NCBI GenBank assembly: GCA_041660505.1
Contig: JBAZWG010000001.1
Location: 541,776 to 605,775 of the forward strand
DNA length: 64,000 nt
From: Minisyncoccota bacterium
GTDB lineage: Bacteria > Patescibacteriota > Minisyncoccia > Phycocordibacterales > JACRKE01
Direction: 5' to 3'
The notes beneath the pieces are model-generated. The model searched no databases. It was not told the origin of the DNA and saw only the letters and a program-made list of their open reading frames with translations. Position numbers and translations under genes: made by a program. Shown one piece after another: positions 3,541 through 61,057 of this stretch (the stretch's first letter is position 1; the number at the start of each line of letters is the position of its first letter).

Positions 3541-4101
3541 TTATTTTGACTTAGAAGGTTCAACTTTAGGCACCTTAAAGGTTGAACCTTCTAAGTCGCC
3601 CAAAATTTGAAGCAGTGCCGTCATGATAGTCATGGGTGATGGCGGGTCGCCCGGGATTTCATAATCTACCGGTATGGCACCGCGCGCACCGTCGAGTACG
3701 GCGTAGGAGCCTTTGAATATTCCGCCATTAATAGCGTCATCGCCGACCGCGACAACAATCTTCGGAGTCGGTGTTGCTTCATAAGAATGCATAAGCCCGT
3801 CATACATATTGCGAGAGACCGGGCCTGTCACCATCAGCATATCGGCATGGCGCGGGGAGGCGACGAAGTGAATGCCGAAACGTTCAACGTCATAATAAGG
3901 ATTGCCCAGAGCCACGAGCTCCTGCTCCTCTGCGTTGGTCCCGCCGGCGGTCACGACGCGGATGGCCAAGGAGCCATTAAAGATTTTTTTGACCTTAGCG
4001 CTTAGTTCCGCGCCGGCAGTGTGATATTCAGGAGGTAAGCCCATATCAACCGATTCTATCAGTCTGGGGGTTTTTATGATTTTGGAAATTAAATTAAGCA
4101 T
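3541..4101 (-). CDS. NuoB-like hydrogenase small-subunit homologue lacking all Fe-S ligating cysteines (Ehr-type)
   Basis: 186 aa with NuoB/Oxidored_q6-like spacing (..RHADMLMVTGPVS.., ..AVGDDAINGG.., ..IPGDPPSP..). The protein contains zero Cys. The canonical CCxxE, GxCxxxGG and GCPP positions read GG, D and D. The last ~18 codons overlap a palindromic repeat (copy A1). Confidence 0.7.
   Translation of the reverse strand: MLNLISKIIKTPRLIESVDMGLPPEYHTAGAELSAKVKKIFNGSLAIRVVTAGGTNAEEQELVALGNPYYDVERFGIHFVASPRHADMLMVTGPVSRNMYDGLMHSYEATPTPKIVVAVGDDAINGGIFKGSYAVLDGARGAIPVDYEIPGDPPSPMTIMTALLQILGDLEGSTFKVPKVEPSKSK
3548..3597. repeat. REPIN-like palindromic doublet, family A copy A1 (inside 3' coding end of NuoB-like gene)
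   Basis: gacttagaaggttcaac / 16-nt loop / gttgaaccttctaagtc forms a perfect 17-bp inverted repeat built on the AAGGTTCAACCTT / AAGGTTGAACCTT motif. Confidence 0.75.
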
Positions 4102-4571: not shown

Positions 4572-5117
4572 ATGGCCAAACAAGAATTACAAGTTGGTCG
4601 CAATTGGTACGCTATCCATACCTACTCCGGGTATGAGAATGCCGTCGTGCGCAACTTGAAACAACGCATTGAGTCGCTCGGAATGGAGAATTTGATTTTC
4701 AACGTATTGGTTCCTAAAGAAAAGAAAGTAAAAGTTCGTGGCGGCAAGCGCGTGGAGTATGAAGACAAGATTTATCCCGGATACGTTTTAGTAGACATGA
4801 TCGTGACGGATGCGTCATGGTATGTAGTCCGCAATACGCCCCGCGTGACCGGCTTCGTCGGCTCGGGCGTCAATCCTATACCTTTGGACAAGAAAGAGGT
4901 TGATGAGCTCTTCCGCCGAATGGGCGAGACGTCTGTCAAACACTCCATCGAGCTCGATGTTGGTGAGACCGTGCGTATTAACGACGGACCGTTCAAAGAC
5001 TTCGAAGGCAAGGTGAGCGAGAAGGATGAGGCCAGGGGCAAGGTCAAGGTGCTCGTCTCGATGTTTGGTCGCGAGACACCCGTGGAGTTAGATTTTCTCC
5101 AAGTAGCGAAGATTTAA
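4572..5117 (+). CDS. nusG: Transcription termination/antitermination factor NusG
   Basis: 181 aa. N-terminal NGN domain (WYAIHTYSGYEN) and C-terminal KOW motif (GETVRINDGPFKDFEGKV). Confidence 0.9.
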   Translation: MAKQELQVGRNWYAIHTYSGYENAVVRNLKQRIESLGMENLIFNVLVPKEKKVKVRGGKRVEYEDKIYPGYVLVDMIVTDASWYVVRNTPRVTGFVGSGVNPIPLDKKEVDELFRRMGETSVKHSIELDVGETVRINDGPFKDFEGKVSEKDEARGKVKVLVSMFGRETPVELDFLQVAKI

Positions 5118-5213
5118 TTATTAACAGAATTTAAGAATTACAGAATTACAGAATAATAAAGCTTCTTTCTATAATTCCCAAATTCCTAAATTCTAAAATT
5201 CTGTTCAAATAAC

Positions 5214-18004: not shown

Positions 18005-19717
18005 ATGGAAACTAAGTCCTGCCAGAATTGCAAAGAAAATTTCGTCATCGAACCGGAAGATTTCGTTTTTTACGAAAAAATCAAAGTCCCCCCGCCGACT
18101 TTCTGTCCGGAGTGCCGTATGATCAGGCGATTCCTCTGGAGGAACGAGAGAACACTATATAAGCGTAAGTGTGATTTGTGTAGTAAAGACATAATTGCTA
18201 TGTATTCGGCAGATTCCGATTTTACAGTGTATTGTTCCGACTGCTGGTACTCCGACCAATGGGACCCAATGGAATACGGCAGCGATTATGATTTTTCCGT
18301 GCCATTTTTTTCTCAATTCGGGCTGTTGGTAAAGAAAGTTCCTCGGATAGCACTTGAGGGATATCAAAATTTAAATTCTCCATTCACTAATTACACATGG
18401 TTTTCGAAAGATGTTTATTTGTCTGCTTCCACGTTGTATTCGGAGAATGTTTTTAACTCCCAGGCAACATCTAACGGAGCAGATATATTCGATTGTGATA
18501 ATACTTCGAGATCTAATACTTGTCTTGATGTTGTGACGGCCGATAAATGTTCTCGCTGTTATTCTTGCATACAAGTTCAAGAAAGTCTGGATTCTCGTTT
18601 CCTTTACGATTGCAAAAATTGTACGAGTTGTATGTTAAGTCACAACCTGAGACACAAATCATACGTCCTAAGAAATAAACAGCTTACGAAAGAAGAGTAT
18701 GAAAAAGAAAAGCCTGATATAGGGAGTTTTAAAATTCAGTGCGAATGCGAGGCAGAATTTGCCCACCTGCGAAGCGGAGCGGTAACCAGATTCGCCTCTG
18801 TGACAAAGTCAGAAAATACCACCGGCGACTACATTACTAATTCCAAGAATATTTATCGTTCATTCGGTGTTGATAACGCCGAGAATATACGCTATGGATC
18901 CCGTGCCACATATATTAAAGATAGTATGGATGTCCACGGCGTCGGAAGCAGCGATGGGGCAGTTGAGTTATTGTATGAATTCATTAACGGCGGATACAAA
19001 GATTCACGAATGTTTTTTTCAGCAAATTCGTATGAAGGAATGCTGAACGCGTACTACTGTGATTATTGCAGAGGGTCAGAAAACGTATTCGGTTGTGTCG
19101 GTTTAAAAAAGAAGCAATATTGCATTCTTAATAAACAGTATTTAAAAGAGGAATATTTAGAGTTGGTGTCGAAAATAATCGAACACATGAACAAGATGCC
19201 ATACGTAGATGCTAGCGGCATCGAATATAAATACGGAGAATTTTTTCCATCGGAAATTGCACCATTTACCTATAACGAAAGTTTAGCACAAGAATATTTT
19301 CCGATAAGGCAAGATGTTGCCGAGACGGCTGGATATCGCTGGCGCAAACAAGAAGAAAAAAGTTATAGGATTACCATTTTGTCCAGTGCTCTGCCAGACC
19401 ACATCAACGACACCCCTGATTCTATCTTAAAAGAGGTTATAGGATGTGAACATCGTGCAGAATGTTCTGAACAGTGTACTGGTGCGTATAAAATAACACC
19501 GGCAGAATTGAATTTTCATCGCGCCAACGGAGTTGCCCTGTCTCGTTTATGTATGAACTGTCGGCATTCCGCTCAATTTAAAAAGAGAACACCAATGCAG
19601 TTATGGCATAGACATTGTATGAAAAAGGGTTGCCCAAACGAATTCGAAACCTCCTACGCCCCAGATCGCCCCGAGATCATCTATTGCGAGTCTTGCTATC
19701 AGCAGGAAGTCGTGTAG
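18005..19717 (+). CDS. Cysteine-rich multi-zinc-ribbon protein, paralogue A
   Basis: 570 aa, about 40 Cys mostly as CxxC pairs. N-terminus CQNCKENFVIEPEDFVFYEKIKVPPPTFCPECR. C-terminal tail YAPDRPEIIYCESCYQQEVV is shared with the 20365..22062 product. Confidence 0.7.
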   Translation: METKSCQNCKENFVIEPEDFVFYEKIKVPPPTFCPECRMIRRFLWRNERTLYKRKCDLCSKDIIAMYSADSDFTVYCSDCWYSDQWDPMEYGSDYDFSVPFFSQFGLLVKKVPRIALEGYQNLNSPFTNYTWFSKDVYLSASTLYSENVFNSQATSNGADIFDCDNTSRSNTCLDVVTADKCSRCYSCIQVQESLDSRFLYDCKNCTSCMLSHNLRHKSYVLRNKQLTKEEYEKEKPDIGSFKIQCECEAEFAHLRSGAVTRFASVTKSENTTGDYITNSKNIYRSFGVDNAENIRYGSRATYIKDSMDVHGVGSSDGAVELLYEFINGGYKDSRMFFSANSYEGMLNAYYCDYCRGSENVFGCVGLKKKQYCILNKQYLKEEYLELVSKIIEHMNKMPYVDASGIEYKYGEFFPSEIAPFTYNESLAQEYFPIRQDVAETAGYRWRKQEEKSYRITILSSALPDHINDTPDSILKEVIGCEHRAECSEQCTGAYKITPAELNFHRANGVALSRLCMNCRHSAQFKKRTPMQLWHRHCMKKGCPNEFETSYAPDRPEIIYCESCYQQEVV

Positions 19718-19758
19718 TCTACGTTGTTGGTTGACGCCTTTCGTGATATGCTACGCAC

Positions 19759-20052
19759 ATGAGCGATATCGCATTATTACAGCAGAATAAAGATATTTTC
19801 GAGAAATACGGCACGGCCTATGCCGGGCTTTTTGGGTCGCGTGCGCGAGGGAATGCTCATGAAGACAGTGATTACGATATTGTCGTCAAACTAAAAAAAC
19901 CGATCGGGCTTTTTACATTTACCGGCTTTCAGCTCGAATTGGAAGATCGTCTACAAAAGAAAGTTGATCTCATGACTGAGGCTTCGATAACTCCTAGGAT
20001 TAAGTTACAAGCATTAAATGACCTCAAGATTTTCTATGGACAGCGAGAATAA
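19759..20052 (+). CDS. mntA: MntA-type nucleotidyltransferase antitoxin
   Basis: 97 aa. Minimal nucleotidyltransferase signature GLFGSRARGNAHEDSDYDIVV. Confidence 0.8.
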   Translation: MSDIALLQQNKDIFEKYGTAYAGLFGSRARGNAHEDSDYDIVVKLKKPIGLFTFTGFQLELEDRLQKKVDLMTEASITPRIKLQALNDLKIFYGQRE

Positions 20053-20368
20053 GTTGTATCTCGGGCACATTCTTGATGCGATTACCAAGCTCGAGAAATA
20101 TGCGGGATTGACTTCGCGGACTGATTTGGAGACAAACGATCTTGTGTATGACGCCATAGTTCGCGAAATAGAAATTTTAGGTGAGGCAACGAAACACCTG
20201 ACGGACGACTTCCGTTGTCTGGAACAGGGAATTCCCTGGAATCTGATTATTGCAACCAGAAACAAGCTTATACACGAGTATTCCGAAGTTGATCTTGATT
20301 CTATCTGGAAAACTATCCAAGAAGATTTACCTAAGCTCAAAGCGGTGGTCAATAAGTATTTGAATTGA
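20018..20368 (+). CDS. hepT: HepT-type HEPN toxin (DUF86)
   Basis: 116 aa. HEPN Rx4-6H motif RNKLIHEY. Overlaps mntA as usual for this toxin-antitoxin pair. The alternative in-frame ATG at 20036 may be the true start. Confidence 0.8.
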   Translation: MTSRFSMDSENKLYLGHILDAITKLEKYAGLTSRTDLETNDLVYDAIVREIEILGEATKHLTDDFRCLEQGIPWNLIIATRNKLIHEYSEVDLDSIWKTIQEDLPKLKAVVNKYLN

Positions 20369-22062
20369 TGGAAACCAGAACTTGCCAAAACTGTAAGCAA
20401 AATTTCGTCATCGAACCGGAAGATTTTGAGTTTTACGAAAAAATAAAAGTCCCTCCGCCGACCTTCTGTCCGGAATGCAGAAATATCCAGCGTCTTGCGA
20501 CACGCAATATGAAGTCTTTGTATCGGCGCGCCTGCGACAAATGCGGAGAGAATGTTGTTTCTCGATTTTCTTCGTCCAACCGCGCAAGAATGTTTTGTCA
20601 TAAATGCTGGTGGGCAGAAGACTGGGACGGCATTTCATTCGGTAAGGATTACGACTTTTCGCGCCCATTTTTCGAACAGTTCAATGAATTACTTTTTAAC
20701 GTTCCTCATGTTTCTATTCTTAATTCAAACATGGTTGAGAGCGATTATTCCAACATGGAAACAGATTGCAAAAAATGCTATCTGACTTTCGGCGGCCACT
20801 ATAACGAAAATTGCGCCTTTACTGTCTACAGTTTGTATGGGAAGGAAGTTTACGATTCGTACTGGTCCCTTCACTGTGAACAATGTTTAGGCAACACGAG
20901 TGTTAATCATTGTTACCGTACGTTTTTTTCGGAACAATGCGGAAATTGTATCGACACCTTTGTCTCACGCGACTGCCGCGGGTGCACAAATATCATAGGC
21001 TGTGCAGGTTTGCGCAATAAGCAATATTGCATTTACAACAGACAATTCAGCAAAGACGACTATCTGAAAGAAAAGTCCAGGCTCAATTTCGGATCCCATG
21101 CAGAGCTCGAGAGTATCATCAGTAAGTCGCATGAAGTTTGGCTGAAGACGCCTCATCAATATGCAGCAATGATTAAGACAGTAAACTGCTCCGGCAACGA
21201 TATTTTTAACTCTAAAAATGTCATTAACGGATGGAACGTAGAAGAGAGCGAGAATTGCAAGAACGCATATATAGCAGCCTCGATAAAAGATTGCTATGAC
21301 GAAACCTCCGTAGGCAATGACGAGCTTGGCTACATGAATGCGAACGGCGGGGGATTATATAACTGTAAAGCAACGCTATACTCCTTTTCCAGCGACCCGA
21401 TGAATCGAAAAAGCGGATTTAATTGCGAATACTCCTATTCGCTTGTTAATTGCAATGACTGCTTCGGTTGTGCCGGTTTGCGCGGCAAGCGATACTGTAT
21501 TCTTAATAAACAGTACACAGAGGCCGAATACAAAAATTTATTGCCGAAAGTAATCGAACATATGAGGAAGGCACCTTTTGTATCTTCTGCCAACCGATAC
21601 ATTTATTCGTATGGCGATTTTTTCCCGGCAGAGCACTCGCTTTTTGCATATAACGAATCAGCCGCCCAAGATTTTTACCCGACACAAGGCGATAAGGCGC
21701 TAATGGCCGGATTTAATTGGCGAGAAGAACCGCCGACAGAATACAAGTTTACCGACTATATAATTCCGGATGATATTAGGGATGTTAAAGACGATATTTT
21801 AAATGCCGTGTTAAAGTGCGAGAAAAGTGGCAAGGCATATCGAATCATAAAGCAAGAACTCGAATTTTACAGAAGCATTGGACTGCCAATACCACGAATC
21901 GCCCCGCTCGAAAGAATAAATCAAAGAATTAATAATTTACTGCCGTTCAAACTTTGGGAGAGAACCTGCGGTAAATGCTCCAAACCCATTCAGACACCGT
22001 ACGCTCCCGACCGGCCGGAGATCGTCTATTGCGAGTCTTGCTACCAGCAGGAAGTAGTGTAA
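20365..22062 (+). CDS. Cysteine-rich multi-zinc-ribbon protein, paralogue B
   Basis: 565 aa, homologous over its full length to the 18005..19717 product. The first ~110 nt and last ~40 nt are ~85-90% identical at the DNA level. The interior is conserved only at the level of Cys spacing. Confidence 0.7.
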   Translation: MMETRTCQNCKQNFVIEPEDFEFYEKIKVPPPTFCPECRNIQRLATRNMKSLYRRACDKCGENVVSRFSSSNRARMFCHKCWWAEDWDGISFGKDYDFSRPFFEQFNELLFNVPHVSILNSNMVESDYSNMETDCKKCYLTFGGHYNENCAFTVYSLYGKEVYDSYWSLHCEQCLGNTSVNHCYRTFFSEQCGNCIDTFVSRDCRGCTNIIGCAGLRNKQYCIYNRQFSKDDYLKEKSRLNFGSHAELESIISKSHEVWLKTPHQYAAMIKTVNCSGNDIFNSKNVINGWNVEESENCKNAYIAASIKDCYDETSVGNDELGYMNANGGGLYNCKATLYSFSSDPMNRKSGFNCEYSYSLVNCNDCFGCAGLRGKRYCILNKQYTEAEYKNLLPKVIEHMRKAPFVSSANRYIYSYGDFFPAEHSLFAYNESAAQDFYPTQGDKALMAGFNWREEPPTEYKFTDYIIPDDIRDVKDDILNAVLKCEKSGKAYRIIKQELEFYRSIGLPIPRIAPLERINQRINNLLPFKLWERTCGKCSKPIQTPYAPDRPEIVYCESCYQQEVV

Positions 22063-22073
22063 TATAGGGGGTA

Positions 22074-26036: not shown

Positions 26037-26501
26037 ATGTACCTAAACAAAGTATTACTTATCGGTAATCTGACACGCGACCCGGAGAAGCGAGCTTTGC
26101 CGAATGGTACGAACGTTACGTCATTCAGCCTCGCGACTAATCGTATTTATAAAGACAAGAACGGTGCCAAGCAAGAATCGGTAGAATACCACAATGTCGT
26201 TACCTTCAGTAAACTCGCGGAATTGTGCGCACAATACTTAAAGAGAGGCCAGTCGGCATATGTGGAAGGCAGACTGCAGACGAGAAGTTGGGACGATAAA
26301 GCAACCAATCAGAAGAAGTACCGAACGGAGATAGTTGCAGACACGGTCCAGTTCGGGCAAAAGGCCGGTGGGAGTCCATCTACTCCGATGCCCGGAGGGG
26401 CCGGAGTTCCGACTTCGCCACAGGCGAACGTCGGAAAAGAAGCACTCGACACGATAGAGTACCCCGAAGAAGAAAGTAACGTCGAAGATATCCCATTTTA
26501 A
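26037..26501 (+). CDS. ssb: Single-stranded DNA-binding protein
   Basis: 154 aa. OB-fold N-terminus, Gly/Pro-rich linker, acidic tail EDIPF. Confidence 0.9.
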   Translation: MYLNKVLLIGNLTRDPEKRALPNGTNVTSFSLATNRIYKDKNGAKQESVEYHNVVTFSKLAELCAQYLKRGQSAYVEGRLQTRSWDDKATNQKKYRTEIVADTVQFGQKAGGSPSTPMPGGAGVPTSPQANVGKEALDTIEYPEEESNVEDIPF

Positions 26502-26531
26502 CAGAATTAAAGAATTATAGAATTAAAGAAT

Positions 26532-26744
26532 ATGATCTCATCCGCCAAACAATGTTATTTCTGCAATAATAACTTCAAGACGATAGACTACAAAGAGACC
26601 GAGCTCTTGAAGCGCTTCTTGTCACCGCACGCCCGCATTATGTCTCGCCGCAAGACCAGTACCTGCGCCAAGCATCAGCGCAAGTTAGACTCGGCTATCA
26701 AGCGCGCCAGACACTTGTCGCTCTTGCCATTCATCTCGCGTTAG
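26532..26744 (+). CDS. rpsR: 30S ribosomal protein S18
   Basis: 70 aa. Motif CYFCNNNFKTIDYKETELLKRFLSPHARI. Confidence 0.9.
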   Translation: MISSAKQCYFCNNNFKTIDYKETELLKRFLSPHARIMSRRKTSTCAKHQRKLDSAIKRARHLSLLPFISR

Positions 26745-28259: not shown

Positions 28260-28305
28260 CGACTTTTGAAAATTTAAAGATTTAAATAGTAAAAATTTAA
28301 AAATT

Positions 28306-28644
28306 ATGAATAACGTACAACAATTAAAGAGGCGAGTCATGCGACGGGTGTATGCATTTTGGGTTTTGCGTACCGCATATCACTCCCTGTTGCTTAAAGG
28401 CGTTGCAATTTCGCTATTGTTTATTGAGTTAAGAGAATTGGTATCACTTAGAAACGTGATCACAAACACTCTACAGTCCGGAGGCATAGATCGCATGGTG
28501 TCTTATCTCGAATACTCTTTCGCTCACACTCAAGCGTCAGTACAAGTAACTCTAGCGCTTGTCGGTGTTCTGGCTGTTTGGTTCGTGGTTGACGCGATAC
28601 GAAAAGATTTTGTCGTGCCGGTTCAGCAATTCGCGCTCCGCTAG
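28306..28644 (+). CDS. Hypothetical small membrane protein (possible anti-sigma factor partner)
   Basis: 112 aa, two hydrophobic segments, immediately downstream of the ECF sigma gene. Confidence 0.35.
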   Translation: MNNVQQLKRRVMRRVYAFWVLRTAYHSLLLKGVAISLLFIELRELVSLRNVITNTLQSGGIDRMVSYLEYSFAHTQASVQVTLALVGVLAVWFVVDAIRKDFVVPVQQFALR

Positions 28645-33853: not shown

Positions 33854-36800
33854 ATGAGTAGAAAGTTCAAAAACTCGAAAGTGACGAAAGTCATTTCAGG
33901 TTTGACGGGCTTGATGACTGCAGTGGTCATGGTTGGTGGGGCACTCGTAGTGCCTGCATCTGCCGCAACCGCAGCAGAACTTCAATCTCAAATCGACGCT
34001 CTTCTCTCGCAGGTTCAGACCCTACAAGGTCAGGCCGAAGGAGGAGGATCAGCATCGTCAGGTTACACCTTCAGCAAGAATCTCTTGCTCGGTAGCACAG
34101 GTGCTGACGTTAAGGCGCTTCAAGAGCTCTTGAACCAGGATTCAGATACACAAGTATCTGTAACTGGCGCAGGTTCTCCGGGTGCAGAGACTTCATACTT
34201 TGGTCCTGCAACGAAACGCGCAGTTATTAAATTCCAAGAGAAGTACGCAGATGAGATTCTTGCCCCGATCGGCTTGGCCCACGGGACAGGAACAGTCGGC
34301 CCAGCCACTCGCGCAAAATTGAATGAGTGGTCAGGTACGGTCTCTAGTACAGACACTACTACCAGTACATTCCCTGCCGGCTGTACATCAGCTAGTGGCT
34401 TCAGTCCGACAACCGGACAGTCATGTGCTTCTGGTACAACGACAACCACAACCACGACACTTCCGGCCGGCTGTACATCAGCTAGTGGCTTCAGTCCGAC
34501 AACCGGACAGTCCTGTGCCGGCGGTACAACCACCACAACGACTACGACTGGTGCAGGAACCCTCACGGTTTCTTCTGCCACTCAGCCGATGAACTCGCTC
34601 GCACCGAAAGGTACGTCGCGTGTTCCGTTCACAACCTTCACACTCACCGCAGGTGCGTCTGATGTCTCTGTGACAGGTGTCACCGTCCAGCGCGCAGGTC
34701 TCGCACAAGATGCGGCCTTCGCCGGTGTCGTTCTCTTGAGCAGTGATGGTACACAGCTCGGTATTGCCAAGACTTTGAACTCGGACCACACCGCAACAGT
34801 GGGTGATCCGTTCACTGTCAAGGCCGGTACTTCAGCCACCTACACCATCGCCGGTAACATGGCAGCGGATGAGACTTCATACGCAGGCCAAGTTGCCCAG
34901 CTCAATGTTATGGGTATCCAGACTGCCGCCACGGTATCAGGAACCTTCCCGATCCTCGGCGCCCAGCAGACGATTAACAACACTTTGAGTGTTGGTACGG
35001 CAACTTTCGCCGCTTCTTCTTTTGACCCTAACACGGCTCAAAGCAAGCAGATCGGTGAGACGGCTTACAAGTTCTCTGGTCTACGCGTTACCGCGGGTTC
35101 AGCAGAACGCGTAATCCTCAAGTCTGTTCGCTGGTACCAGTCAGGCTCGGCCGCATCAGGCGACCTTGCTAATGTCATCACTAAAGTTGATGGCGACAGC
35201 ACCCTATATCCGACGACTGTGTCGGCAGACGGTAAGTACTACACGACAATCTTCGGTACAAGCGGCCTCTTGATTGACAAGGGTCTCTCAAAGGATCTCT
35301 ATGTAACTGGTGACCTCGTAGGTGCTGGTTCTTCAGGCCGAACTGTAGAATTCGATGTTTACAAGAACACCGATATCTACATGACGGGTGAGACCTACGG
35401 CTACGGTATCATCGGTACAGCTACGGCCAACTGTAACGCAGTTGCTTCAACAGCAACGACAGCTTCTGAATTCATCAACTCAAGCACTTCTTGTGCGTCA
35501 TCCGGTACGATTGGTACGCCGTTCTATAGCGCTTCGGTCTTAACGATCAGCGCCGGTTCGGTAACCAGTCTCCAGAAGGCCACATCGGTTCCTTCGCAGA
35601 ACATTGCAGTCAATGTTCCGAATCAGATCTTGGGTGGCTATATTGTAGACCTCAAGGGTGAGCCGGTAGCGGTTCAGTCACATGTCTTCACAATCGCTTC
35701 CTCAACAGCGGTTGCAGGAAATGGTGTGCTTACAAGTGTAACTCTCGTTGATGAGAACGGTGCAGTTGTCGCCGGTCCTGTCGATGGAGTTTCTGCTACA
35801 GGTAACACGCCGACCCAGACAGTGACCTTCACCGATACGGTAACGTACAAGATCGGAGCACACACTTATACCCTTAAGGGTAAGGTGCCTTCGACCGCAA
35901 GTACGGGTAACACCTATCAGGTTTCCTCGTTCACGCTCTCGAGTGCAACAGGCCAGACAACGGGTAACACAATTACCTTCCCGGCCGGTACTGCGCTCAA
36001 TACGATGACGGTTAAGTCCGGTGCGCTCGCAGTTTCTGTCTCGTCACAGCCGGTAGCACAGAGCATTGTGTCCGGCGGTACGAACGTACTTCTCGCGAAC
36101 TACCAGCTTGACGCATCGCAGTCCGGTGAAGATGTACGCTTCTCTTCGCTCACCGGTACGCTCACGAGCACCGGTACCGAATTCGCAACCACTTCGCTTA
36201 CGAACTGTCAGATCTACAATGATGCTGGTGTTTCGATAACGACAGGTTCGAATGTTGTCAATCCAACTGCTACGACGATTGCCTGGACATTCGACAACTC
36301 TTACACCGTAACCAAGGGGACCACCAAGACTCTCTCGGCCAAGTGTAACTTGTCAACAGCAGCAGTTGCGGGCAACATCGTCAGTCTCGGCCTTGCGGCA
36401 AGTGCATTGGGAACGGCCACTGGCCAAACTTCCGGCAATACAGTCGGAACGACCTATAGCGCTTCTGTGGGTCCTGCGATGACGATTGCCGCAGGTTCGT
36501 TTGCAGTGTCTCAAGATTCTTCCGCTCCTTCATACACTGTTGTTGGGTCAAGTGCGAACGTGCCGGCAACCGGCATTGTTGCTAACGTGCTTCGCTTCCG
36601 CGCAACTAATGAAGGCGTCAACTTGACCAAGCTCGGTATTCAGTTGACAAATGCCACAGTGGCATCGTCTTCGTCATCCGACTTGTTGCAGTACACAGTA
36701 TGGGATGGCAGTACTCTCTTAGGTACCCAGACCATTACTGGTTCTGCCTCATTCGCGACAACCACACTCACACTCATGAATCCCGCTGGAGTTCCGCTCC

Positions 36801-48388: not shown

Positions 48389-49190
48389 TGAGTGGTAGGA
48401 GAGTTTTCGTGTCCGCAGTGAAGCCTAAGGGGTGACCCGTGGTGGAGCGACACGAAGTACGAATGTTGGCACAAGTAACCGCAATAGCGTTTAGAACACG
48501 CTACGCCGAAAGACTAAGGTTTCCTTCGCGATGTCAATCAGCGAAGGGTTAGTCGGTCCTAAGGGAATGACGAATGTCGGACCCGATGGAATACAGGTTA
48601 ATATTCCTGTACTTTTTTGTAGTCTGATGAAATGACGAAGTGTAGTATGCATGGCGCATTATGGATTTGTGTTTGCGCATCCGCCTTGATTCCCAGGAAA
48701 ATCCGGGAGTCTGTCTTTAATGACGACGGTGAAGGTGTGTGAAGATTCCGCGATTCGTCAAAGGAGATCATGCAAAGCGCGCTTCCAAGAAAAGTTTCTA
48801 AAGATAACTACAGAAAAACCGTACCGTAAACCGACACAGGTAGTCAGGTCGAGCAGACCAAGGCGAACGAGTGAGTGCATCCCAAGGAACTCGGCAAAAA
48901 AGCGGCCGTAACTTCGGAATAAGGCCTGCCCACGCAAGTGGGCTACAACAAAAGTTTCTCTGGCGACTGTTTATCAAAAACACAGCTCCCTGCGAACTCG
49001 TAAGAGGATGTATAGGGGGTGACGCCTGACCAATGCCAGAAGGTCAACCGGTGACCGTGTGCGCATCACACTGCGTGTGATGCAGTTTAAATATTTAAAT
49101 ATTTAAATTTGCATCGCGCTTGGCGCGATGCGTATGCTGTTCGTCGTAAGCCCTGGTGAATGTCGGCAATAACTATAATTGTCCTAAGGT

Positions 49191-50173: not shown

Positions 50174-50503
50174 ATAGCACCTAAATTTAAATATTTAAAT
50201 TTTGAAATATTTAAACAGTGGGTTTTATACCGTCTGAACCCTCGAGAATATGATATACAACAAACCACATCATACTGTTTACTTGAATCACGGCGGTCGT
50301 AGATAGAGATATCTATGATAGAGCTGACTTATATCGGTGGAGTCCCATGCGGATCACACCTAGGGAATTTCTAATATTTAAATATTTAAACATTTAAATT
50401 TTGGACGACCCGTAGAGACTAAACGTCAGCCATCTTCATTCATAATTTATTGTGAGAAAGATGAAGCTATAGTCCATGCCCGTAGCAATACGGTGAATAC
50501 ATG
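50174..50503 (+). mobile_element. Group I intron in 23S rRNA (E. coli ~2593-2600 region), no homing-endonuclease ORF
   Basis: Inserted between exon gggttcagaccgT and cgtgagacagg. Ends in G. Contains agactaaacgtc (R element) and aagctatagtcc (S element). Confidence 0.6.
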
Positions 50504-58508: not shown

Positions 58509-58562
58509 AAAGCGCAGATGTGTGGTATAATTTATAACCGATGCTAGAAGGGAGGTGATATG

Positions 58563-58700
58563 TGACCAAAGAGGTGGCCTACATCTTGACCCTCGAAATC
58601 GAGGGCGAGATTCAGACGGGTCGGGTAGAGATTGTGACGGCCGCACAAGCCTACCCCGAGCTCGCGCAGTCCGAAAAAGATTTTGCCGAGCTCTCCTAAT
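58563..58700 (+). CDS. Small hypothetical acidic protein (45 aa) in a high-GC patch
   Basis: GTG start preceded by SD gggagg (5-nt spacing). Extended -10 element tggtataat at 58524..58532. Not in the ORF track (<60 aa). Confidence 0.3.
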
Positions 58701-58779
58701 CCCTCGCCTTGCGGTTCTCGTCTCGCCAGGTGGCAGACGGGACCGCTTTGTTTTTAGCCTAATTTTGTTACACTACCAA

Positions 58780-58822: not shown

Positions 58823-59722
58823 ATGATTATATCCGGAGACCAAATAGCTGAAGAGATTAGATATGAGCTTACACAAGAGGTGAGCCGTATGAATGCGCCG
58901 CTTACGCTTGTAATTGTCCAAGTGGGTGAGCACCCGGCTTCTTCGCAATATGTTCGCAAGAAAATGGCCTTTGCCAATTCGCTCGGCATTAATGCGGAAC
59001 CCAAGAAATTTGATGTAGGCATTACGGAAGAAGCGCTGAAAAAAGAACTTGCGCACATCGTGGCCGACATGAATCACGACCCGTATGCTTTTACCGGTAT
59101 CATTGTGCAGTTGCCGTTACCGAAAGAACTTGATACAGAAAAGATCCTCGCAGAGATTCCAGCCGAGAATGATGTCGACTTGCTCTCGCAAGAAGCGATA
59201 GAAAAGTTTAACACCGGCACGTCACGAATATTGCCGCCAGTTGTTGGTGCTGTTGCCGAGATATTAAGGCGCGCGCATGTGTCAGTTGCCGGCAAGAAGG
59301 CGGTCGTCGTCGGCCGAGGCAAGCTTGTCGGTAAACCTGCGGCGGTTTGGTTGGAACACGAAGGTGCGCAAGTTGTAATTGCCAACAGATCGACAGAAGA
59401 TTTGGCTAAGCTTACGCGAGAAGCCGATATTATTATCACCGGTGTCGGTTCGGCGAAATTGATTACGCCGGCAATGGTCAAGCAAGGCGTCATTCTCATT
59501 GATGCCGGCACAAGTGACTCGTCCCGAGCGCAGTCGAGGGAGTCGGAAGACCGCCCCTCGAGTTCCTCGGGGCAACGAGCGGAGCTCGTTGGCGATGCCG
59601 ACCCGGCTTGTGCGCCCAAATGCTCAATATTTACCCCCGTCCCCGGCGGTGTCGGCCCAATGACTGTAGCTATGCTCTTCAAAAACCTGATAGAACTCGC
59701 CAAAGCCCAGAACTCTTTTTAA
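58823..59722 (+). CDS. folD: Bifunctional methylenetetrahydrofolate dehydrogenase/cyclohydrolase with a GC-rich in-frame insertion
   Basis: 299 aa. FolD motifs throughout (..GKKAVVVGRGKLVGKP..ITPVPGGVGPMTVAML..). An extra ~24-aa Ser/Arg-rich insert (SDSSRAQSRESEDRPSSSSGQRAE) between IDAGT and LVGDAD is encoded by GC-rich hairpin-containing DNA at 59516..59585. Confidence 0.85.
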   Translation: MIISGDQIAEEIRYELTQEVSRMNAPLTLVIVQVGEHPASSQYVRKKMAFANSLGINAEPKKFDVGITEEALKKELAHIVADMNHDPYAFTGIIVQLPLPKELDTEKILAEIPAENDVDLLSQEAIEKFNTGTSRILPPVVGAVAEILRRAHVSVAGKKAVVVGRGKLVGKPAAVWLEHEGAQVVIANRSTEDLAKLTREADIIITGVGSAKLITPAMVKQGVILIDAGTSDSSRAQSRESEDRPSSSSGQRAELVGDADPACAPKCSIFTPVPGGVGPMTVAMLFKNLIELAKAQNSF

Positions 59723-59726
59723 AAAA

Positions 59727-59745
59727 TTGGAAGTTTCACTTCCAA
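59727..59745. repeat. Palindrome TTGGAAGT-N5-ACTTCCAA copy P1 (upstream of transposase gene; loop inverted relative to P2/P3)
   Basis: ttggaagtttcacttccaa. Two more copies sit inside the downstream gene at 59945..59963 and 60236..60254. Confidence 0.7.
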
Positions 59746-59763
59746 AAAGTTATAATATGGAGC

Positions 59764-60450
59764 ATGCACATAAATTTAGAGTTTGCCGAGGAAGAGTACT
59801 ACCATGTTTACAATAGGGGCGTAGAAAAACGCAGTATTGTGGTCGATGAAAAAGATTCCGCCCGATTTATACAAAGTTTGATCCAGTTCAATTCGCTCAA
59901 GCCGATAGGGAGTATTTTCGAAAACACTTACGAATACAAGAAAATTGGAAGTGAAACATCCAAAGAACTAACAAAGAAGAATGAAGCCCTTGTAGAAATT
60001 ATCGCATATTGCTTAAATCCCAATCATTTTCACATGATACTTTCACCAGTTGTTGAAGATGGTATTAGTAAGTTCATGCATCGTCTGGGAACCGGTTATA
60101 CGAAATATTTTAATAAGAGGCACAAACGCTCCGGGTCGCTTTTTCAGGGATTGTTTAAAGCGAAACACCTGGAAGATAACGACTATTTACTCCATGTGAG
60201 CGCCTATGTAAACCTAAACGACCGCGTGCATAAAATTGGAAGTGAAACTTCCAAAGTTTCAAAATTGGTGCGGAAGAGTTACGGGGAGTATGAAGCGGGG
60301 AGTGGCGGATTCTGCCAGAAAGATGTTATACTTGATCAGTTTAAGAATAGAAAAGAGTATACGGATTTCTGTGAAGATTCACTCGAACTTATGCACGAGA
60401 CAAAAGACGAGCAAAATGAACTAAAAGATCTTAATTTATTAGAATACTAA
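59764..60450 (+). CDS. IS200/RAYT-like HUH tyrosine (Y1) transposase homologue carrying two in-frame palindrome insertions
   Basis: 228 aa from ATG 59764. The ORF-track N-terminal extension overlapping folD is rejected. COG1943-like blocks YYHVYNRGVEKRSIV.DE.D, the HUH motif NPNHFHMIL, GSLFQGLFKAKH, and DYLLHVSAYVNLN (candidate catalytic Tyr). A TATAAT lies at 59751..59756. Confidence 0.6.
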   Translation: MHINLEFAEEEYYHVYNRGVEKRSIVVDEKDSARFIQSLIQFNSLKPIGSIFENTYEYKKIGSETSKELTKKNEALVEIIAYCLNPNHFHMILSPVVEDGISKFMHRLGTGYTKYFNKRHKRSGSLFQGLFKAKHLEDNDYLLHVSAYVNLNDRVHKIGSETSKVSKLVRKSYGEYEAGSGGFCQKDVILDQFKNRKEYTDFCEDSLELMHETKDEQNELKDLNLLEY

Positions 60451-60454
60451 TTTC

Positions 60455-61057
60455 TTGGACATGAGATGTCCAAAAGTTATGAGAGTAGTAAAAGAAACAT
60501 CAACGACTATCCTTCTTAAGGATTACGAATTTATCCCGATGCTCATGGCTGTAATTATGTGTGCCTTGGCTATTTTTTTTGTCTGGTTTCTCTCTGTTCC
60601 CGGACAATTCAAGCGGCCAGAAATTTGGGCTTCTCTGTTGTTCGTGTCAGCGTATGCATTTGCATTAATATGGACAATAGAAATGTTAACTTTTGAATTC
60701 GATAAATCGCAGAACAAACTGATTATTATTAAGAAAAAAATTACAAAAAAAACGCAGAAATCGTATACAATCACTGATATAGAAAAAATCTGGACGAGCC
60801 AATACGAAGGACAACGCCGGAAAAAAGGCGACATGTGGAGTGTGTACCTGTTGTTAAAAAGTGGAAATAAAGTTCCTCTAACCCCTGGGTTGAGTACAAA
60901 TAGGGTACATCCGTTGTATAATCCCAAAATTCCTAAATATGTAGGACGTTTAGCAAAGTGGCTGCAAGTTCCCCTTGAAGAGGGTAAGGAACTCGGCGTG
61001 AAAGAGGCGCTTAATAAAAGCTACGATAGCTCTAGTCACTCGGAAGAAGAAGCATAA
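60455..61057 (+). CDS. Hypothetical membrane protein
   Basis: 200 aa. Two TM helices near the N-terminus, then a Lys-rich soluble domain. Confidence 0.45.
   Translation: MDMRCPKVMRVVKETSTTILLKDYEFIPMLMAVIMCALAIFFVWFLSVPGQFKRPEIWASLLFVSAYAFALIWTIEMLTFEFDKSQNKLIIIKKKITKKTQKSYTITDIEKIWTSQYEGQRRKKGDMWSVYLLLKSGNKVPLTPGLSTNRVHPLYNPKIPKYVGRLAKWLQVPLEEGKELGVKEALNKSYDSSSHSEEEA

Follow-up and report, generated by a model that had tools for sequence, protein, structure and literature searches.

An intact Y1 HUH enzyme gene of the Patescibacteria and the four hairpins that it probably recognises

The gene, its promoter and its hairpins

The window analysed here is a stretch of 64 kb from a Minisyncoccota bacterium (contig JBAZWG010000001.1, positions 541,776 to 605,775). 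Between its positions 59727 and 60473 lies an intact gene for a protein of 228 residues, preceded by a short hairpin, holding two more in frame and followed by a fourth just past its stop codon (Table 1). Motif blocks can be read directly in the protein: EYYHVYNRG, NPNHFHMIL, GSLFQG and DYLLHVSAYVNLN. A first-pass annotation of this DNA, made from the letters alone, had quoted YYHVYNRG, NHFHMIL, GSLFQG and AYVNLN, all of which are present, and had seen in the gene a member of the RAYT/IS200 superfamily. By sequence comparison the protein is indeed a Y1 HUH enzyme of that superfamily. Pfam Y1_Tnp (PF01797) matches residues 73-150 with 36.4 bits for a cut-off of 23 (expectation value, E, 6.4e-9), and the two histidines and the tyrosine expected of such an enzyme, H88, H90 and Y148, are intact and invariant among the 120 best homologues; residue numbers are those of the window protein throughout. 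No other Pfam domain was found in it at E <= 1, a C-terminal domain of the helix-turn-helix (HTH) type included. The NCBIfam RAYT equivalog NF047646 gave 29 bits and did not reach its cut-off of 80.

When the Protein Data Bank was searched by sequence, with the protein and with the profile of its family, no true relative was returned, the profile yielding only chance matches to RNase A. The fold is more telling. An AlphaFold2 model built on the 120 homologues (pLDDT 86.5, pTM 0.83) has as its top Foldseek match 4er8_A, the Escherichia coli TnpA_REP bound to its REP hairpin (E 1.2e-5), followed by the TnpA structures of IS608 and ISDra2; the Foldseek probability is 1.00 to 4er8, 2a6m, 2vjv and 2xm3, with target-normalised TM-scores of 0.58-0.66, and the model shares the RRM-like beta-sheet fold of TnpA_IS608 and TnpA_REP. 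It places a strand at residues 88-95 and a helix at 139-150, and ends in a single long C-terminal helix (196-222). The tyrosine motif reads YVNLN, then D or N where the Y---NP motif has its P. N152 is invariant, and so is S172, which belongs to a tail with the consensus RSSW among the homologues (SS tail).

Homologues are plentiful, 6223 in one search and, in another, 1129 clusters at 50% identity and E <= 1e-30; loci in species representatives number more than 579. Those that carry a name all come from Patescibacteria (Paceibacterota, Vogelbacteria, Kaiserbacteria and others), and the closest one, the protein itself set aside, is just 59% identical. A search of viral contigs gave no homologue, hence no sign of a phage vehicle, and the 64-kb window holds no second copy of the gene. 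The invariance of the HUH and tyrosine residues across homologues indicates that the gene is not only intact but under purifying selection.

Table 1. Position of the gene, its promoter element, its key residues and its four hairpins in the window
Feature	Position	Strand	Basis
Hairpin site 1, TTGGAAGT-TTC-ACTTCCAA, inverted copy of the unit	59727..59745	.	palindrome scan
-10 box TATAAT	59751..59756	+	promoter scan; ATG 7 nt downstream
Y1 HUH (RAYT/TIRYT-like) gene, 228 residues, intact	59764..60450	+	Pfam match, alignment, AlphaFold2 model, fold match
Hairpin site 2, in frame, TTGGAAGT-GAA-ACATCCAA, one mismatch	59945..59963	.	palindrome scan
HUH motif H88-F89-H90 within NPNHFH	60025..60033	+	invariant in both alignments
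Helix alphaC, residues 100-119	60061..60120	+	helix in model; alphaC by topology
L130, position covarying with the loop triplet (V or L with GAA/GAG)	60151..60153	+	covariation
Candidate catalytic Tyr148 (AYVNLN)	60205..60207	+	invariant in 120 homologues; helix 139-150, like alphaD of Y1 enzymes
Hairpin site 3, in frame, perfect, TTGGAAGT-GAA-ACTTCCAA	60236..60254	.	palindrome scan
Hairpin site 4, TTGGACAT-GAG-ATGTCCAA	60455..60473	.	hairpin scan; 4 nt past stop codon

The palindrome is 19 nt long and built as 8-3-8, TTGGAAGT-NNN-ACTTCCAA. A scan of the window gave three matches, and none of 100 shuffles gave as many. The first-pass annotation had located these three copies correctly (59727, 59945 and 60236) and had noticed that the loop of the upstream one is inverted: with its loop TTC, site 1 reads exactly as the reverse complement of the copy inside the gene. 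It had given the spacer as N5, a pattern without a single match in the window, where N3 is right; and while the two in-frame copies do encode KIGSETSK twice, as it said, the mismatch at 59945 (ACATCCAA) and the fourth hairpin at 60455 had escaped it. Site 2 provides the codons of IGSETSK at residues 61-67, in a surface loop ahead of the HUH strand which the model renders with low confidence (pLDDT 52-69 over residues 51-70); site 3 provides those of the same heptapeptide at residues 158-164, directly behind the tyrosine helix. Site 4 has the TTGG/CCAA foot of sites 1-3 under a different top, ACAT instead of AAGT. Beyond these four sites the window contains no further TTGG-N11-CCAA palindrome. 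Folded as single-stranded DNA, the hairpins reach -6.3 to -6.6 kcal/mol, the mismatched site 2 only -3.3. The sites of the window are somewhat eroded, their stems being 8 bp long, that of site 2 mismatched and the top of site 4 non-cognate; the protein is intact. A second perfect 8-3-8 palindrome, TGAAACTT-CCA-AAGTTTCA at 60243-60261, overlaps hairpin 3 by 12 nt and offers an alternative fold; it was not seen among the relatives inspected.

Ahead of the gene, a promoter scan found TTGGAA-18 nt-TATAAT (10 of 12 matches), in which the left arm of site 1 supplies the -35-like TTGGAA. Relatives have G(G/A)TATAAT directly after hairpin 1, with 6-9 nt from there to the ATG in 21 of 26 clear cases. 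Hairpin 1 is thus placed, as far as sequence tells, within the -35 element and the spacer of the gene's own predicted promoter. As the TATAAT stands only 7 nt from the ATG, the messenger would be leaderless or nearly so and begin downstream of hairpin 1, which probably lies outside the transcript of this predicted start.

The layout of the family and its covariation with the hairpin

We compared the DNA at 80 homologous loci in genomes of Patescibacteria; automatic parsing covered 74 loci. Their common hairpin, ACTTGG-N4-loop3-N4-CCAAGT, occupies four fixed places: some 30 nt before the ATG, at about +190 and about +465 in the coding sequence, and about 12 nt past the stop codon. All four sites are found in 36 of the 74 parsed loci and at least three in most, sites 1, 2, 3 and 4 being recognised in 61, 53, 57 and 63 loci, respectively; seven loci missed by the automated parsing likewise carry three or four of them. 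Stems in relatives measure 10-19 bp. The full foot, (C/T)(C/A)ACTTGG ... CCAAGT(G/T)(G/A), hardly varies; the 4-bp top and the loop do, with 18 distinct perfect 4-bp tops. In the protein alignment most homologues have the two peptide segments where the window protein has them, and site 3 spans the stretch between the tyrosine and SSW motifs in all those aligned, with no change in length, hairpin-free homologues included. Same positions and no added length mean that we are not looking at damage to a single copy. The suggestion that REPs interrupt or degrade this particular gene is therefore not supported: the palindrome is absent elsewhere in the window and the peptide segments are conserved in homologues, a combination that the first-pass annotation had itself held to speak against its view.

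The stems are maintained as stems. Over 119 non-coding outer sites, 91.8% of the cells are paired, and double-sided changes number 247 against 83 in shuffles, none of 500 shuffles reaching the observed count. Tops differ between loci through compensatory changes, and they change in concert within a locus: 76% of within-locus site pairs have identical tops, against 6.7% between loci, and between-locus identity is just 25% even for proteins at least 70% identical. Imperfect units, too, are common to several sites of one locus, mismatch included, and are sometimes exact reverse complements of each other (loci L010 and L046); overall, the hairpin unit is flipped about as often as not. The same concert can be heard in the proteins. 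Both hairpin-type peptides occur in 77 of the 120 homologues, with identical 6-mers in 50 of these 77, and the twin peptides are alike inside one protein and unlike between proteins (KLGNLVSK, QLGSEASK, NFGGSTSK and LGGRTAK, each twice). At the foot, CTT is the codon in 95 of 109 cases, its share of leucine codons elsewhere being 23%; for AAG the figures are 94 of 109, and 34% of lysine codons elsewhere. Judged from this codon choice, the codons at the inner sites are constrained by the DNA and not by the peptide.

Some observations on individual loci may be recorded here. Distant homologues have other repeated peptides, hence other DNA repeats, at the site-2 loop and elsewhere: protein P0201 has CKGPTFA/CKGWTFA three times, P0231 has repeats of the KSDF type and P0219 also carries repeats at the site-2 loop, so that the uptake of cognate repeats into this loop seems to be recurrent. 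In P0149 the open reading frame (ORF) continues through hairpin 4. P0205 has an internal deletion that removes the part from FQG to the tyrosine, with ends that are not at hairpins, and no deletion running exactly between hairpins 2 and 3 was found among the proteins listed. Six loci (L063, L037, L021, L068, L071 and L064) show tandem partial copies of one arm beside site 1 or 4, for example ..ATGTCCAAGT aaaagta ATGTCCAAGT..; these may be left over from aberrant cutting and joining, or result from slippage.

Protein and hairpin vary together. When the hairpin-encoded columns (residues 61-67 and 158-164 in the window protein) are set apart, the columns most tied to the hairpin all fall on helix 100-119, right behind the HUH strand, that is on alphaC, which in E. 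coli TnpA_REP lies in the hairpin's minor groove and contacts it (PMC3479197). One face of this helix (S102, K103, H106, T110 and K114) covaries with the top 4 bp. Residue 114, in GYT-X-YFN, follows base pairs 1-2: K with AA, M or R with AG, W with CG, G with GG and N with GA. Residue 110 follows base pair 3, being T or G with G, and L, I or V with A; residues 102, 103 and 106 covary with the closing pair, base pair 4. Away from the helix, residue 130, in LFQG-X-FK, goes with the loop triplet (V with GAA or GAG, R with TCA, K with CGA, CCG or AAG), independently of the stem class, and loop positions are known to be essential in REPs that are perfect palindromes (PMC8266576). Among close pairs the phi values are 0.58, 0.45 and 0.50, against a median of 0.02 over 132 variable columns.

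These associations behave as modules that reassort: locus L049 (AGAC) combines M114 with V110, and locus L064 (CGGC) has W114 on the other helix background. They also predict. Hold-out loci were predicted correctly in 8 of 11 and 9 of 11 cases, and in 101 further proteins, with the hairpin decoded from the twin peptides, the rules were right in 86 of 99 and 85 of 93. They hold as well in loci L075 and L078, both without intragenic hairpins, and although the number is small we take this to mean that the partner in the covariation is the DNA and not the peptide. In the window, K114, T110 and L130 fit the top AAGT and the loop GAA of sites 1-3; the top ACAT of site 4 does not fit K114 and T110. 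The first-pass annotation is supported in taking the palindrome for the cognate, REP-like hairpin of this enzyme.

Movement, known relatives and other repeats

Two pairs of related loci, L021/L056 (92% identical in amino acids, 90.6% in nucleotides) and L023/L035 (81% and 78.7%), are homologous over 711-745 bp and no further, the outer feet of hairpins 1 and 4 being the limits; their flanks are unrelated. The hairpin-to-hairpin block of about 0.7 kb therefore occurs in unrelated genomic contexts. Other pairs at 70-79% are syntenic (L050/L069, L076/L080, L051/L066 and L029/L031), which tells us that units also persist vertically for long. Paralogues within one metagenome-assembled genome are divergent and have different hairpins (L034/L035, L046/L057/L063 and L001/L008). 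The inner sites read CAACTTGG..CCAAGTTG, the outer ones mostly CACTTGG..CCAAGTG. That sites 1 and 4 keep one relative orientation, like the ends of IS608, was considered and rejected: they are oriented alike in 21 loci and inverted in 16.

Hairpins are also met alone. In 331 kb of flanking DNA from relatives there are 14 more cognate hairpins, or about 1 per 24 kb, mostly intergenic, and solo copies whose foot is complete occur well away from any such gene, some of them in frame, in either orientation, in genes for leucyl-tRNA synthetase (LeuRS) and TsaD. A scan of metagenomes with TTGGAAGTNNNACTTCCAA, which at 16 specified bases is too short for the size of the database and did not recover the window's own contig, gave 135 matches, 107 of them without family foot and without a nearby gene, and so probably due to chance; it also yielded 15 solo hairpins bearing the full foot. 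Those of the form ACTTGGAAGT-NNN-ACTTCCAAGT in L109 (11783-11805) and L162 (428-450) lie inside the leucyl-tRNA synthetase and TsaD ORFs, and the stretches of L109 and L162 examined around them hold no RAYT-like gene. Two single loci deserve mention. In L020, some 70 nt from the C-terminal end of the upstream gene (..GNIEPILEACAKGTVGDA..*) stand on both sides of the element, at 2881-2951 just ahead of hairpin 1 and at 3711-3781 just past hairpin 4, with about 80% identity; this could come from duplication of the target or from restoration of the gene's end. In L026, a segment of 541 bp flanked by perfect direct repeats of 23 bp (315-878) has been inserted into the unit, behind hairpin 1 and its promoter and ahead of the gene's start.

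Several known systems invite comparison. The E. coli TnpA_REP and its REPtron (Nunvar 2010; Ton-Hoang 2012; Messing 2012, 4ER8) also place a Y1 HUH enzyme between cognate palindromes, and resemble our case in the top structural match, in the use of alphaC as the element that reads the hairpin and in a hairpin family proper to each paralogue. They differ in the recognition signal, a 5' GT[AG]G guide there and a symmetric ACTTGG/CCAAGT foot without GTAG here, and in the shape of the repeat, bulged and 35-40 nt long there, a perfect stem with a 3-nt loop here. Where their motif is Y---NP, YVNLN(D/N) is read here, an apparent difference; the NF047646 score stays below its cut-off; and the clade considered here has a very low copy number, with no extra copy in the window, and two in-frame copies at fixed positions of the gene. 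In-frame REPs are not without precedent, and the first-pass statement that RAYTs are not interrupted by REPs was too strong: in TnpA_Y1 subclass 2.4 of Cyanobacteria and Bacteroidetes, REPs lie in frame within tnpA_REP, in a variable stretch between HuH and Y (PMC6006769). That subclass shares with the present family cognate palindromes in an unbroken reading frame, in a peripheral variable region. Here, in contrast, one site lies ahead of HuH and the other right behind the Y helix, both are kept across the clade, and site 3 overprints the conserved stretch after the tyrosine without any added length; the motifs differ too, NH[IFV]H and WQ there, NH[YF]H, FQ and the SS tail here.

It is with subclass 2.1, the TIRYTs, described by NH[YF]H, FQ, Y[IV]xLN(P), an SS tail and about 238 residues (PMC6006769, Table 1), that the motifs NH[YF]H, FQ, Y[IV]xLN and the SS tail are shared, as well as the length of about 220-240 residues. 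TIRtrons (PMC3733652; Quentin 2018) likewise have a gene between inverted or self-complementary repeats; dispersed copies are few or lacking there, and a genome holds several divergent paralogues. Subclass 2.1 is, however, reported without REP-like hairpins, with terminal inverted repeats containing GGGG[AT][CG]A[CG], whereas here there are hairpins and no GGGGWSAS was seen; intragenic copies and covariation of protein and hairpin are undescribed there; and its C-terminal HTH-like domain (Bac_DnaA_C, HTH_23 or HTH_28) has no counterpart by Pfam here. The IS200/IS605 elements (IS200, IS608 and ISDra2) offer the same compact arrangement of hairpin, promoter, tnpA and hairpin in about 0.7 kb, the same fold, and whole blocks in new contexts with boundaries at hairpins. 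Subclass 1.1 differs by Y---Q and a core of about 150 residues, against YVNLN and 228 residues with N- and C-terminal additions, and the present family has no high-identity multicopy families per genome, extra internal copies, and ends that are identical perfect palindromes in either orientation.

Short palindromic repeats in frame in protein genes, as our solo hairpins are in the LeuRS and TsaD genes of related organisms, are a feature of intragenic REPs and of the Rickettsia palindromic elements (RPEs), which Ogata reportedly described in 2000. To our knowledge, nobody has described for RPEs a linked enzyme whose specificity residues match them. RPEs are longer than the hairpins considered here, and intragenic REPs (Di Nocera 2013) are tagged by GTAG/CGTC, unlike them. 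By motif comparison the clade is nearest to subclass 2.1/TIRYT, and by its apparent behaviour to a REPtron or TIRtron. Our search of the literature found no description of the clade or of its layout, which, since coverage was incomplete, is weak evidence of absence. What is new is the fixed four-site layout with a promoter site, the overprint behind the tyrosine, the concerted evolution and the residue-by-base-pair covariation.

The window contains further repeats, and for the dispersed palindromic families among them the first-pass annotation had named this enzyme as the only candidate mobiliser in the window. This is not supported: the AAGGTTCAACCTT pairs and the CCCCTCCCC hairpins share nothing with the TTGG..CCAA hairpin, and K114, T110 and L130 fit the enzyme's own hairpin. 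The former are a dispersed family, AAGGTTCAACCTT-N10-AAGGTTGAACCTT, of 36 nt each (3555, 5641, 28652, 48334 and 58778), in which two 13-nt palindromes stand 10 nt apart; one copy stands directly upstream of the folD start, and by its sequence the family resembles a motif of operators or promoters, with no relation to the RAYT hairpin. The latter, CCCCTCCCC-GAAG-GAGAGGGG, are GC-rich with a conserved CCCCTG lead-in (24807, 37733, 44078 and 63574), possibly terminators or another REP-like family. Within folD itself (58823-59722), a GC-rich in-frame stretch, DSSRAQSRESEDRPSSSSGQRAE at 59517-59600, holds an 8-3-8 palindrome of yet another family than the TTGG..CCAA hairpin, CAACGAGC-GGA-GCTCGTTG (59573-59591); about 16 residues look inserted there, since the Pfam THF_DHG_CYH_C match takes up 171 residues against 155 positions of the profile. 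A GC-rich stretch between glyA and folD (58540-58760) has a composition unlike that of its neighbours, and a possible ORF of 45 residues (58562-58699) has no Pfam match. AT-rich repeats with a period of 8 nt (TTAACAGAATTnAAGAATT and ATTTAAAT runs) are intergenic, at 5113-5163, 16290, 26490-26532 and 57298, and also at 28262-28310, 49083-49115 and 50183-50414. Several long direct repeats (D5, D8 and D9) about 2.36 kb apart, at 74-85% identity, in 18005-22066 point to a tandem pair of paralogous genes, and two tandem copies of 90 nt (34355-34534, 84% identity) lie in a GC-rich region, probably within coding sequence.

Interpretation, alternatives and meaning

We consider it probable that positions 59727-60473 form one compact, self-contained unit, made of the gene of a Y1 HUH enzyme acting on single-stranded DNA and of four copies of the hairpin that the enzyme recognises. 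It seems equally likely that this unit is a member of a large, Patescibacteria-specific clade, which has class 2 TnpA_Y1 (RAYT/TIRYT) as its nearest kin and is of REPtron- or TIRtron-like build. The hairpins would fold out of single-stranded DNA, for example from the template of the lagging strand, which is probably the sense strand since the GC skew of the window is positive. A monomer of the protein would dock its alphaC along the top of the stem and its residue 130 on the triloop, in the manner of E. coli TnpA_REP on REP, and the HUH/Tyr site would cut and rejoin the DNA at the conserved ACTTGG/CCAAGT foot. The same activity may move the unit and seed the solo hairpins, while the four copies would be kept alike by the enzyme's activity or, each of them, by selection to stay bound. 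Because site 1 overlaps the -35 element and the spacer of the gene's predicted promoter, we propose that protein bound there would throttle its own expression. The intragenic copies would be old, tolerated overprints on surface loops, still part of the system rather than damage. The weakest step of this scenario is the reason for having two copies within the coding sequence: selection may hold them as binding sites, or they may be relics, tolerated and still serving as substrates.

Several points weigh against this scenario. Binding, cleavage and the place of cleavage are all deduced from comparison. The covariation tests are not fully free of confounding by shared ancestry, and palindromic covariation of this kind is also what a dimer bound to double-stranded DNA would leave. 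Some loci are without one or both inner sites, which must therefore be dispensable. The window has no dispersed copies, and its feet are shorter than the family norm. Near-identical copies inside one genome were not seen, and this, together with the syntenic pairs, means that movement is rare. A simple scheme of the IS608 type, with both ends on one strand, is at odds with the mixed orientation of sites 1 and 4. Lastly, cutting the internal sites as ends are cut would destroy the gene, so that inner and outer sites would have to be handled differently, or the activity be very low.

Among the alternatives, the one that fares best, though we hold it to be unlikely, touches only what sites 2 and 3 do and can stand beside the rest of our scenario: the intragenic copies would be neutral, ancient in-frame insertions, held to the likeness of the outer copies only by recombination, template switching or gene conversion among short repeats and unused by the protein. 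The loss of inner sites in some lineages at unchanged protein length, their position in surface loops of low confidence, and the other repeats at the site-2 position in P0201, P0231 and P0219, which make this loop an insertion hotspot, are all in its favour. Yet repeats of 23 bp are short for homologous recombination while 76% of site pairs match, the foot codons are almost fixed, and the inner sites keep step with changes in the specificity residues of the protein. Slightly less probable still is a purely regulatory system, in which the palindromes would be double-stranded operators for a protein dimer, serving autoregulation or roadblocking with neither single-stranded hairpin nor cleavage. 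A dyad-symmetric site does mimic a 'compensatory' stem pattern, site 1 overlaps the -35 element and the spacer, and the TnpA proteins of the IS608 type are dimers, but E. coli TnpA_REP is a monomer (PMC3479197) and all solved relatives bind folded single strands. An operator would hardly have its asymmetric central triplet tracked by a single residue, nor would a pure repressor need a HUH motif and a tyrosine held invariant by purifying selection, and the finding of the unit and of solo hairpins at new places does not suit it either.

We give little credit to the view that the palindromes work in the messenger RNA as stem-loops, for example for its stability, as RNase III sites, as pauses in translation or as a terminator. 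Transcription does cover sites 2-4, site 4 follows the stop codon as a 3' stabiliser would, and stems in relatives are strong. However, G.T and A.C mismatches are equally frequent (31 each), when RNA of the sense strand would tolerate only the G.T kind, and in the clear cases site 1 lies upstream of the -10 box; on these two grounds this reading was rejected. Units in either orientation at the same site, solo copies in frame within other genes in either orientation, the lack of a T-run behind site 4, and covarying residues on the very helix that contacts DNA in TnpA_REP point the same way. That the gene is a RAYT copy hit by its own REPs, degraded, domesticated and dead, or self-targeted, can practically be dismissed, for against the palindrome twice within its ORF, the NF047646 score below cut-off, and the short stems, site-2 mismatch and different site-4 top of the window stand a full-length ORF with every invariant residue of the family, a hairpin at the same two in-frame positions in most of the 74-81 loci and in 77 of 120 proteins, and a site 3 no longer than in hairpin-free homologues.

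A bolder view, which we put forward as a tentative one and would not ourselves bet on, takes the clade as a natural library of orthogonal pairs of HUH enzymes and DNA hairpins, endowed with a simple modular code and with a reaction of hairpin replacement. Base pairs 1-2 would be read by residue 114, base pair 3 by residue 110, base pair 4 by residues 106/103 and the triloop by residue 130; working through the conserved foot, the enzyme would excise hairpin tops and put them back at existing feet. Such a reaction and such a code are undescribed for any Y1 enzyme. If true, hairpin replacement would explain at once the concerted evolution of the four copies, two of which overprint the enzyme's own coding sequence, the random flipping of units and the presence of solo hairpins in other genes. 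If the code is one of direct readout, biotechnology would gain many orthogonal, perhaps re-programmable, HUH tags for the covalent coupling of proteins to DNA.

The consequences for the family are more immediate. Hundreds to thousands of Patescibacteria genes annotated as 'transposase' carry in-frame palindromes, which should not be taken as damage. The co-evolution of RAYTs and REPs, long argued in the field, becomes readable here residue by base pair, in modules that reassort and that predict, and the way a Y1 enzyme chooses a perfect palindrome can therefore be tested with a handful of point mutants. Finally, we have here a case of dual coding, where an element of DNA structure and a segment of protein have shared the same nucleotides over a long evolutionary time, in very small genomes.

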